This document shows positions 17,160-26,600 of a stretch of 64,000 nt of DNA, piece after piece. The stretch is taken from the NCBI RefSeq assembly GCF_036588685.1, contig NC_086377.1, positions 34,162,001 through 34,226,000 on the forward strand, in the 5' to 3' direction. The position numbers and the translations under genes are program-made. Positions within the stretch are counted from its first letter, which is position 1. Each line of letters opens with the position of its first letter. The notes under the pieces were generated by a model. It worked only from the letters and a program-made list of their open reading frames with translations. It did not search any database and was not told the DNA's origin. This stretch comes from Mytilus trossulus (taxonomy: Eukaryota).

Positions 17160-17511
17160 TTAGTTATCAAAAGTACCAGGATTATAGTTTCATACGCCAG
17201 ACGCGCGTTTCGTCTACATAAGACTCATCAGTGACGCTCAGATCAAAATAGTTAAAAAGCCAAATAAATACAAAGTTGAAGAGCATTGAGGACCCAAAAT
17301 TCCAAAAAATTTGTGCCAAATACAGCTAAGGTAATCTACTCCTGGGGTAAGAAAATCCTTAGTTTTTCGAAAAATTCAAAGTTTTGTCAACAGAAAATTT
17401 ATAAAAATTACCATATAATTGATATTCATGTCAACACCGAAGTGCTGACTACTGGGCTGGTGATACCCTCGGGGACGAAACGTCCACCAGCAGTGGCATC
17501 GACCCAGTGGT
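17160..17511 (-). mobile_element. Hammerhead-ribozyme-containing non-autonomous element (retrozyme-like), copy A, ~350 bp
   Basis: Homologous to 21175-21450 and 24974-25263; no credible ORF; carries the HHR core near its 3' end and a structured 5' domain. Confidence 0.8.
17194..17238 (-). ncRNA. Minimal type I hammerhead ribozyme (copy A)
   Basis: Minus strand: cguca-CUGAUGA-gucu(uaugu)agac-GAAA-cgcgc-GUC-uggcg. Helix I CGUCA/UGGCG, helix II GUCU/AGAC, palindromic helix III. Confidence 0.85.
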
Positions 17512-17539
17512 CTAACCAATTTTACACTTAATATTTCAG

Positions 17540-20600: not shown

Positions 20601-23600
20601 CTTTTTTTGTAAAAATATTGATTACAAATGCTTATCTGCTTTTTTCAATTGATTGAACTTCCAAGTCTTTTGATTAAACATAAGAACTTACATGTCCACT
20701 TGGACAAGCTAGAAAGTTTGCGCACCCGGTGCCCACTCCCACTGTGGACAGGTGGACAAAGTAAAATCCACCTGGGCAGTAGTGTATGAGCCAAATCAGG
20801 TCATACCTGATCTGACATGTTTCTGATAATTGTTATGGCAATTTGTGGCTGTAGTACATATCCAACCCTAAACATTAACTTACTTTAAACTATATATGCT
20901 ATAAGAAAAATGTAAGATCTATATAATTGAGTAAATCAGCATATGCACCTGCTAGTAAAAATAATCATTTATTAAAATTGTGTTGCAAATAATATTCACG
21001 ATAACCATGGTGACGTTGATAATGGCTTTATTTTGTGTTGACAGTAAATATAACAGTAAATATAACAAAAGAGATGCAAATGCAACAAACATGTGTATCA
21101 GATAAGGTCAAGAACGTTGGGTAAAGGGCATATGTTGTGTCGATCGACATCGTTCAAAGGAGTTAATAAACTTATTATAGATACCAGGACTACATTTAGT
21201 ATAAACGCCAGACGCGCGTTTCGTCTACAAAAAACTCATCAGTAACGCTCGACTCCAAAAAAGTTAAAAAGGCAAAATAAAGTACGAAGTTGAGGAGCAT
21301 TGAGGACCAATATTTCTAAAAGTTTTGTCAAATACAGCTAAGGTAATGTATGCCTGAGGTAGAAAAGCCTTAGTTTTTATAAAAATCAACAATTTGTAAA
21401 CAGTAAATTTATAAATATAACCATATCAATGACAATTCATGTCAGCACAAAAGTAATAGAGACGCATGTTATGGTCCAAATCTCATGATACAGGAACTAC
21501 TTTGAACAAAAACAAATCTGAACAATGTATAAATCTTTCCTTTATTCAGGGACAATGTGGATCATGCTGGTCATTTTCATCAACTGGTGCCTTGGAGGGT
21601 CAACATTTCAGGAAAACAGGCCAATTGGTTTCTTTATCAGAACAGAACCTTGTGGATTGTACATTTAAGTATGGTAAGTATAAGGCATATTTGAAAACGA
21701 AGTGAAGACAAGTATTTTAATTTTTTTCATTTGCGGTTTACATATGTTCTGATCTATAGTGTTATTTTGTATTAATATTTTGATGAAACAAATGGCAGGA
21801 TAAGCTTTGACAATTTAGAAATATAACAAGTTAAAACCTTGTTAATATATAGTTTAAAAAAGAGGGACGAAAGATACCTGAGGGACAGTCAAACTCATGA
21901 CTCGAAAATAAACTGACAACGCAATGGGTAAAAATAAAAAAAATAGACAAATGGACAAACAATAGAACACATTACACAACTTAGATAACTAAAGAATAAG
22001 CAACACGAACCCACAAAAACTAAGGGTGATCTCAAGGGCTCCGGTAGGGTACTACTTTATCGTTCTCTAGTTTATCTTCATCCCGGACGATCCAGTTTCA
22101 ATGATTTACCACTTTTATATATTTAAGCAAGACTTCTATCTGAATTAACATACATTATTTGTAACCATCCTTTAAGCAAAAAACTAAATACACAGCATGC
22201 ATTCTCTCCTAATGTCCAGTCATATGTGATATGTATTTGTATTATTTAAGGAACACATCGTGCACGCTGTGTTCTTTTTTCAATTTTTAGTTGATTTTTC
22301 TTGGTAAAAGGGAGACAACCAAGATTAAATTATGTACTTACGCTAATTCATTACGCGTTATTGGTGTATGAACTTCACTCGCGCGCGACATGGTCTGCCT
22401 ACCCTTCCTGAGCACCTGAGATCATCTTCGGTATTTGATGGGGTTCGTAATGCTCAGTCTGTTTTGTGTTTTTTATACTGTTGTTTGACCTTAATTTTCT
22501 ATTTTTTGCCATGACCTTGTTACTTAAATTTCAACTTACTAGAAACTACCAACGAAGTATACTTTGGTTCATGAGACATAAAGTTTGTATATGACTTTCC
22601 AGCCACATTTCTGTACTAGAACAGAAGTAATTTCTCAACCCTTTCTGTTATTCTTTAGCAGACCATAATACTCGTAGAAAAAGCCGAAATGATAACGGCA
22701 TGTAATTTTTTGCTAATTTTGATACTTTACCTAAACATATTCTCAACATGTTCCGAAGAACAATATTGTTCGCACCTCCCCAAGCATCCCTCCCCTTTTG
22801 CATTAAATCCTGGATCCGCACCCAATTTCTGGTGTTTCCATGCTCATAACCACCGCCATATATGAGTCGGCTGAAAATATTATGCATTAATACATTAATA
22901 GGGGGCCACATTTCAGCAGCACTTTGGTACCCATTTTTAACCGAAAACTGAGCTAATCCCACCATTCTCTACATGTTGAATTGATGCGATGAGATTCCCC
23001 GGAAGGAAACTCTTAATGTATTAGCATATGTTGTTAAATTGCTGAGAGCTTAAAGGGAATGTGTATCACAAAGTGTTTCAGTGAAAGGTTAATAAAATTG
23101 AGAATGGAAATGGGGAATGTGTCAAAGACACAACAACCAGACCATAGAAAAATCAACAGCAGAAGGTCACCAACAGGTTTTCGATGTAACGAGAAATTCC
23201 CGCACCCGGAGGCGTCCTTCAGCTGGTCCCTAAACAAATATATACTAGTTCAGTGATAATGAACGCCTAACTAATTTCCAATTTGTACACAAGAAAATGA
23301 AATTAAAAAAATACAAGATTAACAAAGACCAGAGGCTCCTGACTTGGGACAGGCGCAAAAATGCGGCGGGGTTAAACATGTTTATGAGATCTCAACCATC
23401 CTCCTATACCTCTAGCCAATGTAGAAAAGTAAATGCATAACAAATTCGAACATTTAAAATTCAATTCAAGAAAAGTCCGAGTCTGATGTCAGAAGATGTA
23501 ACCAAAGACAATAAACAAAATGACAATAATACATAAAAAAAAAAACTACTAGCAGTTAACTGACATGCCAGCTCCAGACTTCAATTAAACTGATTGAAAG

Positions 23601-26600
23601 ATTATGATTTCGTCATATGAATATCAGGAACAATCCTTCCCGTTAGAGTTAAGTATCATACCATCATAACATATATGAGAAGAACATAATCCGTGTCATG
23701 CCAACAACTGTTTTTTGGAATAAATGTGTTTAGTTCCGATGCAAAGACCCTATCAGTGAATAAATATTAACGCCAAAATACGCAATCTTTATTAACCTGA
23801 CAACAGTACCGTAACTATATCCCTTCTTGATAAGTCTATTTAAAGGTTTTGTTAGTTTCTGAGGTGAATACTGACATTTTTGTGCTTTATAAAGAATATT
23901 TCCATAAAAAAATGGATGTGAAATACCTGAAGGTATACGAAGTCTGCATATTTACGAATGCTATCCGTACACTGATGATAAAATTTAGTAAATGTTTTGA
24001 CTAGTTTGTGATCTCGAAAACCCTGGTGTAATAATTTTTCAGTAATACATAAATTTCTCTCGTTAAAATCTAAAACATTGTTACATACACGAGCGAATCG
24101 TACAGGTTGAGATTTATAAACACCGTAAGATGGTGACAATGGAACGTCACCATCTAAAAATGGATCATTAACGATAGGAAATGAAAAATCATCTCTTTTA
24201 TCATAAATTTTAGTATTAAGCTTTCCGTTAGTGATATAGATATCAAGATCGAGGAAAGGGCACTGGTTATTGTTGGTATTGGCTTTATTTAAAGTAAGTT
24301 CAACAGGATAAATTTCTTTAGAATACATACTGAAGTCGTCATTATTGAGAGCCAAAATATCATCCAAATATCTAAACGTATTATTAAATTTGTTTATGAA
24401 ATGTTGTTTCGATGGGTCTTTGCTGATTTTTGTCATAAATTGTAACACATAGCAATACAAAAACAGGTATGCAATAAGTGGTGCTCAGTTAGTCCCCATT
24501 GAAATTCCGATAACCTGACGATATATGATATCTCCACAGCGAACAAAAATGGTATCTAGTAAAAATTCAAGTGCATATATAGTATCACAGCATGTCCAAT
24601 TGACATAGTTTTTTTTTTATTGCTACTAAAAAATGACCTAAAAGAGTTTGAACATATATATTCACATTCTGACTTTTAAATGCCCATTTAATTAGGTGGG
24701 TGATTTTTTTCTTAATGAGAATGTGAGGCAATGTATTATACAGGGTAGAAAAATCAAAACTTTGAACAGATTCAAAATCACCAATATAAGCATGCAATTT
24801 ATCATGTACTTCCAACGAGTTCTTGACACTCAAAAAGTAATTAATTTCGTTTACCGAATCTGCTACGAAACCTAATTTAATTTAGATGGACAGACGTGTA
24901 ATGAAGGAAATAATGATGGAATGTACATTTCGTGAAGGACAGTCAATCTGCACTGGTTCTTTTCCAATTTCATAGTAGTCAGCACTTCGGTGTTGACATG
25001 AATATCAATTTTGTGGTCATTTTTATAAATTTCCTGTTTACAAAACTTTGAATTTTTCGAAAAACTAAGGATTTTCTTATCCCAGGCATAGATTACCTTA
25101 GCTGTATTTGGCACAACTTTTTGGAATTTTGGATCCTCAATGCTCTTCAACTTTGTATTTGTTTGGTTTATAACTATTTCGATATGAGCGTCACTGATGA
25201 GTCTTATGAAGACGAAACGCGCGTCTGGCGTACTAAATTATAATCCTGGTACCTTTGATAACTATAATCAACCCCAAATTCTATCCCCTCAACCCCCACC
25301 CCCACACCATCCATCGATTTTTTAACTTATACATTATAAGTCGGTTGTTTACCAAAACCTTTTCTCACTAAGAATAAGGTCCCGGTGATGGATTTGTAAA
25401 TGTTATTTACAATGAAGTTGCTTCTCTCGTCAGTCCTTTTATTATTATTATGTTTTGCCAATGTCGAGAGACTTTAGATAATGGACACTGTTAACAATAA
25501 ATCTATTTGACTTAAGTTGTTGATTATTTCATATCTTGTTTATATGCAGCTCAGCTCGTACGTGTCTGTATATCGTCTGTTTAGTTCACGCATCATTTTA
25601 GATATAACATAATTTGATGAGACTGTCATCAAATTGAGAGGTTTAGCGCTATATAACCAGGTTTAATCCTCAATTTTCTACATTAGAAAATGCCTGTTCC
25701 AAGTCAGGAATATAACAATTCTTCTCCATTCGTTTTTGATGTGTTTTGTCATTTGATTTTGCCATGTGATTCTGGACTTTCCGATAAGATTTTCCTCAGT
25801 AATTGTGTGATTTTACTTTTTCTACTTACAGGTAACGGTGGTTGTAATGGTGGGTTTGTATTCCGGGCATACCAATATGTCAAAGACAATAATGGAATAG
25901 ATACAGAGTCATCTTACCCGTATGAAGCTAAGGTAATCATATCATTATACACCTTTATCCTTATTTGTTTTGTTATTATGTGCGGTTTAGTGTTTTATTG
26001 TTATAATAGGCTTTCTTTCGAAATACGTGCTTATCGTGGTTTGTTTAGTTGTTACATATTTGTTTTTCGTTATTTTATTTTACTTAAATAAGGCGGTTAG
26101 TTTTCTGGTTTGAATTGTTTTACATTGTCTTATCGGTGCCTTTTATAACTGACTACGCGGTATGGGCTTTGGTCATTGTTGAAGGCCGAACGGTGATCTA
26201 TAGTTGTTAATGTGTGTGTCATTTTGGTCTTTTGTGGATAGTTGTCTCATTGGCAATCATACCACATCTTCCTTTCTATATTATCAACAGAAACATGTTT
26301 TTAATTAATTGTCTTTTTTTCTAAGCCCGAAAAAATGTTTTTACGAGAAATACATGTATAATATTAATGAATAATGGAAAAATCATCAGCCTCCAGTGTC
26401 TCGTGTGTGATTTAATCAATTGTAGAATGTTTAACGCCACTTTCAGTATTATTTGTTAAAATGAAAGCAAACAGATGTTTGGATCGATTGGGGTCAGACA
26501 TATCTGTATTTAACTTCATACAAACTTACAGTCTACTGGTCCCGGCAAGTAACCTTCTTAGACATTTATAGGGATCCATAATTTCGAATTGGTCCTTAAT

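Follow-up and report, generated by a model that had tools for sequence, protein, structure and literature searches.

We analysed a window of 64,000 nucleotides from the genome of Mytilus trossulus (NCBI RefSeq assembly GCF_036588685.1, contig NC_086377.1, positions 34,162,001 to 34,226,000 of the forward strand). The window carries three short elements with a type I hammerhead ribozyme (copies 1 to 3), which are the known mussel retrozyme of the non-LTR kind (LTR, long terminal repeat) and are non-autonomous. They are solo insertions and, with a probability of roughly 0.68, were written by the reverse transcriptase of a hammerhead-free Naiad, a Penelope-like element, which would recognise a hairpin shared by the retrozyme and the Naiad. 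Copies 1 and 3 belong to subfamily A of the retrozyme (array period 354-356 bp), and copy 2 belongs to subfamily B (362-368 bp). The retrozyme family is already known, and it is its likely partner and the signal that were not found in print. The literature search covered papers rather than Repbase and Dfam, and it found none that links the retrozyme to Naiad or describes the hairpin; the supplement of PMC7229834, whose structure figures may draw it, lay outside this coverage.

The search for a mobilising partner was made among GIY-YIG endonuclease candidates, of which 149 of 615 were scored and 18 were retrieved whole. It yielded a 1056-amino-acid Naiad in which a short stretch matches the retrozyme unit at its start. 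This family matches the published Naiad_Mgal at the DNA start and at the protein start, and its N-terminus, used as a query, found two further Naiad families. In all three families, the same element lies after the end of the preceding unit and ahead of the start codon. The best match was the 1000-amino-acid family, in which unit positions 5-67 of both elements were 87% identical (E = 2e-17, L103 array unit). The shared segment scored 86 against a shuffle maximum of 30, and the other two Naiad families scored 40 and 38. The 1000-amino-acid Naiad is young, with 10 full units at 97-100% identity, intact 1000-codon frames and 6,321 exact 3' ends. Its translation contains an N-terminal GIY-YIG domain, a CxC motif, a DKA motif and a C-terminal reverse transcriptase, the features used to recognise Naiads (PMC8557442). 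The hammerhead core was absent from all four Naiad families examined here.

The initial annotation had proposed that the retrozymes were mobilised by the Penelope-like reverse transcriptases whose remnants are abundant nearby. Remnant comparison confirmed the abundance in the window, but proximity failed to name the mobiliser. The commonest window remnant is a selenoprotein Naiad that has no sequence in common with the retrozyme (it scored 29, and shuffles reached up to 35). A 12-nt match between the end of its frame and the hammerhead was rejected as chance (E = 0.33), since it lacks GAAA and helix III. Five GIY-YIG families with a C-terminal endonuclease and (TA)n ends, which may be Neptune-like, were also rejected because they share no sequence with the retrozyme. 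Scores for these five and the selenoprotein Naiad were 25-33, at or near the shuffle level.

The shared segment folds into a hairpin in which a 7-bp helix is followed by an internal loop, a second helix of 6 bp, another internal loop, which is conserved, and finally an apical stem. It is kept in copy 1 and lost from copies 2 and 3. Five families bear the hairpin, namely retrozyme subfamilies A and B and three Naiad families, and all five gave a fold z of -2.1 to -4.0. The first helix begins 6-9 nt past the fixed insertion end in each of them. In 11 distinct rows from the five families, 96% of 220 cells were paired and 8 of 20 pairs changed on both sides. This level was reached by 0 of 500 shuffles, and slid controls gave 31-53%. 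RNAalifold returned the same two outer helices. Between subfamily A (49 units) and subfamily B (21 units), the hairpin differed at 6 of 64 columns, none of them in the two outer helices, whereas the middle and the tail differed at 36 of 215 and 15 of 38 columns, respectively. The hairpin matched no Rfam family.

The hairpin core also recurs in published Naiads. Its 9-mer occurs 16 times in the supplement of Craig et al. 2021, 14 times at the start of a Naiad consensus, with one further occurrence across a line break. The core opens at least 15 of the 54 published Naiad consensuses, from four phyla: three from corals, eight from bivalves, three acorn worm families and one from a toadfish. In several of them the closing helix, compared by eye, changes in sequence and keeps its pairing.

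The insertions showed a fixed 3' end, 39 nt (subfamily A) or 40-43 nt (subfamily B) beyond the ribozyme cut site. In subfamily A, 74 of 77 distinct ends lay within 12 nt of one point and 69 within 8 nt. In subfamily B, 35 of 39 ends lay within 12 nt of the fixed point, a count that excludes 25 rows produced by an indel in the reference unit. Two Naiad families likewise showed a fixed 3' end (52/53 and 22/22). Seven retrozyme ends extend 38-168 nt further, and some of these resemble the 'tail' of Penelope elements. The 5' starts in 95 arrays were spread across the whole unit, and insertion lengths in the same arrays ranged from 0.1 to 19 units, with the cut site crossed. No pile-up of 5' truncations was found at the cut site, as 10 of the 95 arrays start at positions 310-331 against about 6 expected, in a sample biased toward hammerhead-bearing copies. 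ATT, TTT or TTA follows the end in 60 of 86 subfamily A cases, and the flank is AT-rich. No poly(A) tail was found on the retrozyme insertions. A consistent target duplication was not found either: shared flank words of at least 8 nt occurred in 5 of 95 arrays against 1.7 in controls, and three of the five words consist of element sequence. The same insertion pattern has been described for Penelope-like elements (PMC8557442). The retrozyme thus shows what is expected of a Naiad-dependent element, both in its fixed 3' end, 5' truncation and lack of a consistent target duplication and in a cis sequence shared with Naiads at the same place relative to the insertion end.

These observations suggest the following mechanism. 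Tandem arrays elsewhere in the genome would be transcribed, in keeping with the family RNA seen here. The hammerheads would cut the transcript into monomers of 355/366 nt, and a host ligase would close them, as published for the mussel family (PMC7229834). A Naiad protein would bind the hairpin and nick AT-rich DNA, by analogy with the internal initiation of the anole Poseidon element PAc. Complementary DNA synthesis would start 6-9 nt upstream of the hairpin; the end and the spacing are observed, and binding and priming are drawn from PAc. The insertion end is distinct from the ribozyme cut and the insertions cross the cut site, therefore the template was not a cut linear monomer. A start 39-42 nt past the cut would yield only 39-42 nt from such a monomer, so insertions of 0.1-19 units need a circle or an uncut multimer, which we infer to be the template. 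Early stops would leave 5'-truncated copies without the hairpin, as seen in copies 2 and 3, and such copies are expected to be dead ends. The 1000-amino-acid Naiad is the closest match, though any of several hairpin-bearing families may act. At its fixed end, subfamily B is closer in sequence to the third Naiad family than to the 1000-amino-acid family, so the acting family is not settled on the latter. We also lean, with less confidence and only slightly, towards a broader reading, in which the 58-nt hairpin of coral, bivalve, acorn worm and fish Naiads positions a telomerase-like reverse transcriptase inside its RNA and was hijacked by mussel hammerhead circles.

Several points weigh against recognition of the hairpin by a Naiad protein. 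The binding and priming of that protein on the hairpin is the step reached by analogy. The fixed-end sequence differs between the retrozyme and the 1000-amino-acid Naiad, and all ends lie in T/A runs, which makes the spacing uncertain by 2-3 nt. The covariation comes from five families, the rows that show it also served to draw the structure, and one of the Naiad rows is misaligned in part. Naiad pieces were touched by 14 of 116 retrozyme 5' junctions, against 2.7 expected from fragment edges or 14.9 if insertion inside a fragment is counted, and 4 of these 14 involve the hairpin-less family. One exact chimera of a Naiad end and a retrozyme start was found in register, about the chance level; the reverse pattern gave nine matches, and the eight inspected were plain retrozyme variants. 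The longest arrays, of about 74 units, may owe their length to DNA recombination. A hammerhead-bearing partner may also have been missed, given the share of GIY-YIG candidates that was scored.

Three other explanations were weighed against the same evidence. The hairpin may derive from Naiads and serve another job (promoter, translation or stability), while any Penelope-like or long interspersed nuclear element (LINE) enzyme moves the retrozyme and the end is set otherwise. This fits the place of the Naiad hairpin immediately before the start codon, the involvement of several Naiad families at the junctions, one of them hairpin-less, and a published model that leaves the enzyme open (PMC7229834). 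We nevertheless consider it unlikely. The retrozyme has no reading frame, yet its hairpin is better kept than its middle and tail, and a constant spacing to the end in five families is unexpected for a promoter or translation signal. A LINE enzyme is further disfavoured by the failure to find a poly(A) tail and a consistent target duplication.

It is much less probable that the hairpin is a processing signal or an unknown ribozyme that cuts just upstream, with ordinary priming from the 3' end, so that it replaces the hammerhead in Naiads. Naiads have been described without hammerheads (PMC8557442), in line with the four families examined here, and the internal loop sequence is conserved across phyla. 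A cut in every unit, however, would preclude multi-unit insertions. The hairpin also has no Rfam match, and the reads of RNA run X24 that cross the unit junction, with no pile-up of starts or ends listed, argue weakly against such a cut, as the library is fragmented. The least probable explanation is that the signal is read as DNA, with a Naiad endonuclease recognising the sequence in genomic copies and thereby defining the end. The Drosophila Penelope endonuclease needs tail sequence for recognition (cited in PMC11167929), and two Naiad insertions lie no more than about 10 nt from a retrozyme unit junction (L034, L065). These two insertions belong to a hairpin-less family, though, and new insertions land in unrelated AT-rich DNA, while the G-U pairs and the compensatory changes point to a single strand that folds. 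Recognition of the hairpin as RNA by a Naiad reverse transcriptase remains our preferred reading.

All three hammerhead cores claimed by the initial annotation were found in the window, with coordinates shifted by 1-2 bases. The proposed check with the Rfam Hammerhead_1 model (RF00163) matched 17194-17237(-) and 25188-25231(+) at 33 bits each (E = 2e-4) and 21205-21248(-) at 27 bits (E = 0.02), all just below the gathering score of 34. A descriptor scan also found them and predicted a cut in each. The loose descriptor gave 0.07 matches per shuffle in 60 shuffles, none with helix I of at least 6 bp. The cores have the type I order of helices I-III with the conserved core that defines RF00163. 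Helix I had been read as CGUCA in all three; this holds for copies 1 and 3, whereas copy 2 has CGUUA. Helix III consists of 2 bp with a palindromic tetraloop, and helix II has 3-4 bp. The window hammerheads are thus the canonical metazoan type I form and not the 'minimal' type I supposed earlier, as the minimal hammerhead ribozyme (min-HHR) is defined by an absent helix III, a long helix II and a bulge at position 9/10 (PMC4209133). Cleavage had been expected to need dimers, but a cloned mussel repeat cleaves itself at about 0.1/min (PMC7229834), so a dimer is unnecessary. Small circular RNAs are not expected from the window copies, as one hammerhead per solo copy gives no unit-length circle. 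The active hammerhead fold of the circular unit lies 8.7 kcal/mol above the best fold, and the hammerhead regions alone folded no better than shuffles in 3/3 cases (z 0.06 to 0.79).

The retrozyme family is large. The exact 37-nt hammerhead string has 10,441 copies in the 1.3 Gb genome and a looser core has 20,470, with 0 in reversed controls. The genome-wide search suggested by the initial annotation placed many cores in head-to-tail tandem arrays with the two periods given above; the window copies are solo. One array of about 74 units lies near the start of the largest contig (G000:C1:269290-295525). The elements have the characters of a non-LTR retrozyme, namely a 150-450-bp unit, one type I hammerhead and no coding frame, and together with array formation by the family these bear out the earlier reading as non-autonomous retrozymes. 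Frames over the elements gave no Pfam match where scanned.

In public RNA run X24, 5,953 of 8.7 million records aligned to copy 1 at a likeness of at least 88%. Only 50 reads were at least 99% alike, therefore the RNA is that of the family and not of copy 1 specifically. The head-to-tail joint was crossed by 574 reads, which genomic arrays containing the same joint explain equally well as circles do. First mates favoured one strand about 2- to 6-fold, with the library strand uncalibrated; if the library is a standard stranded one, this is the bias expected when the hammerhead strand is the main RNA.

The three copies and the surrounding features are listed in the table below. Copy 1 and copy 3 were 93% identical over 293 bp, and copy 2 was 80-82% identical to either. 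The copies had been described as homologous non-coding elements of 275-350 bp; the homology is real, and the actual sizes are 355, about 286 and 291 bp. They are separate insertions, because subfamily, strand and truncation point differ among them. Copy 1 ends 25 bp from a splice acceptor at 17540, and the following exon has an open frame and no start codon. Copy 1 therefore probably sits in an intron of paralog 2, a papain-family protease gene. The earlier placement of the elements in and just before this gene thus stands for copies 2 and 3, and copy 1 is probably also intronic rather than ahead of the gene. As for the claimed clustering, three copies within 8 kb exceed the genome-wide mean of 1.0 exact core per 64 kb, but the excess is weak (P(≥3) = 0.08). 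A rough count gave 3 insertions in 329 kb among loci retrieved for other reasons. The window copies themselves are ordinary and probably inert. From its sequence, copy 3 (24974-25264(+)) is an intronic hammerhead on the sense strand and could cut the host pre-mRNA. Co-insertion of copy 3 with the neighbouring Naiad remnant, suggested by their head-to-head look, is not claimed, as the 127-bp spacer matched neither among the 40 matches scored.

Table. Retrozyme copies, hammerheads, hairpin and neighbouring features (window positions unless a locus is given)
Feature	Position	Strand	Description
Copy 1	17161..17515	-	Solo, full 355-bp unit of subfamily A whose fixed 3' end is 17161; 97-98% to array units of period 355-356
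Copy 1 type I hammerhead	17194..17237	-	Predicted cut after 17200, 39 nt before fixed end
Segment of 63 nt shared with Naiad 5' end	17449..17511	-	87% to 1000-amino-acid Naiad family
Hairpin of copy 1	17508-17451	-	58 nt; fold z -3.9; covariation
Papain-family paralog 2, recognisable exons	17541..28617	+	Pfam PF00112 matches, exon map
Copy 2	21167..21454	-	Subfamily B (~366-bp unit); 5'-truncated near unit position 79; hairpin lost; intronic, antisense to host gene
Copy 2 type I hammerhead	21205..21248	-	Cut predicted after 21211; helix II short of one pair, helix I with one G-U pair
Second remnant of 1000-amino-acid Naiad family	21859-22051	-	L243 unit comparison
3' remnant of selenoprotein Naiad without hairpin	23091..24846	-	Separated from copy 3 by 127 bp of unrelated DNA
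Copy 3	24974..25264	+	Subfamily A; 5' truncation at unit position 63, without the hairpin; in an intron, same orientation as host gene
Copy 3 type I hammerhead	25188..25231	+	Predicted cut after 25225
3' remnant of 1000-amino-acid Naiad family (closest hairpin match)	28988..29574	+	This remnant and the one at 21859-22051 are 89% and 85% to L243 unit
Selenoprotein Naiad in window	23091-24846, 57735-59045; SECIS-like (selenocysteine insertion sequence) 58257-58321	-	Sequence match
Selenoprotein Naiad, full copies	L101:5384-8407(+), L102:1028-4051(-)		

The window contains three tandem papain-family protease genes with a matching exon layout (~485-10903, ~17541-28617 and ~33810-57323, all +). We presume paralog 2 to be cathepsin-L-like. 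Paralog 3 contains about 154 copies of a 90-bp unit at 42750-56800 with about 97% identity, and the unit resembles the end of an intron together with a portion of a protease exon.

The selenoprotein Naiad is young and very abundant, with 37,168 first-look candidates. Its 1008-codon frame contains four in-frame UGA codons, all at cysteine-like positions, and about 55 nt past the stop there is a match to SECIS_1 (32.8 bits). In the table of Craig et al. 2021 the selenoprotein Naiads are confined to two spiders and two clams, and none is from a mussel (PMC8557442). The two young copies that sit close to a retrozyme unit junction are L034:2223-2904 and L065:738-2158. A second, unrelated hammerhead repeat family is built of units near 550 bp whose ends are (TA)n-like (L145, L152, L157:8856-9841), and no match to the hairpin was found in it. 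Judging from its sequence, it may depend on (TA)n-targeting families with a C-terminal endonuclease. Such families (L150, L153; L142-L146) carry hammerhead-like cores of their own after the stop codon, one canonical and the others altered.

The enzyme that moves animal retrozymes is an open question (PMC7229834), and so is the choice of an internal start by Penelope-like enzymes (PMC11167929, PMC8557442). The hairpin suggests a candidate answer to the two questions, since it names a protein family and a short RNA and predicts where synthesis starts, and one assay could address them together. The remark of Craig et al. that hammerheads may be mere parasites of Penelope-like elements (PMC8557442) gains support from it as well. 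If the broader reading of the hairpin given above is true, one Naiad protein and a 355-nt circle would form a minimal two-part system for rolling-circle insertion, and hammerheads would truly parasitise a hammerhead-free host element.

The closest known system is the non-LTR retrozyme of Mytilus galloprovincialis (Cervera and de la Pena 2020, PMC7229834), which has the same type I hammerhead, repeats of 350-390 bp in two similar families, thousands of copies, abundant RNA including circles, and the cloned self-cleaving repeat mentioned above. Compared by eye, in scrambled text, the published Rtz of 375 nt (PMC4918200 Additional file 11) matches both copy 2 and subfamily B across its middle part and its hammerhead. 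The window copies differ in being solo rather than tandem, and the accessible account of the M. galloprovincialis retrozyme reports no fixed 3' end, 5' truncation pattern, shared hairpin or named partner. Naiad elements (Craig et al. 2021, PMC8557442) share the fixed 3' end, heavy 5' truncation, partial tandems, the lack of a clear target duplication and the 5' hairpin. The retrozyme is frameless and bears a hammerhead, whereas Naiads are without one (PMC8557442). The accessible account of Craig et al. leaves the hairpin undescribed, and the non-autonomous elements it gives as examples, Chlamys derivatives, have 3' ends in common rather than a downstream hairpin. PAc (Frangieh et al. 2024, PMC11167929) resembles the proposed mechanism in its internal reverse-transcription start past the hammerhead, its need for downstream RNA and its ATT target. 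Its start lies 111-118 nt into the frame, it depends on RNA as far as 172 (some 55 nt further downstream) and it cuts at ATT, and its own hammerhead is unnecessary for cutting (PMC11167929). PAc belongs to another clade with a C-terminal endonuclease, and it starts in an AC-rich stem-loop rather than in a U/A run before a hairpin as here. Xenopus retrozymes derived from pseudo-LTRs of Penelope-like elements (Li et al. 2026, 10.64898/2026.07.22.740005) are alike in that terminal sequence is common to the retrozymes and the Penelope-like elements. Their homology is to hammerhead-bearing frog termini, with no mollusc or Naiad link in the accessible text, whereas in the mussel 63 nt are shared with a partner that is hammerhead-free.

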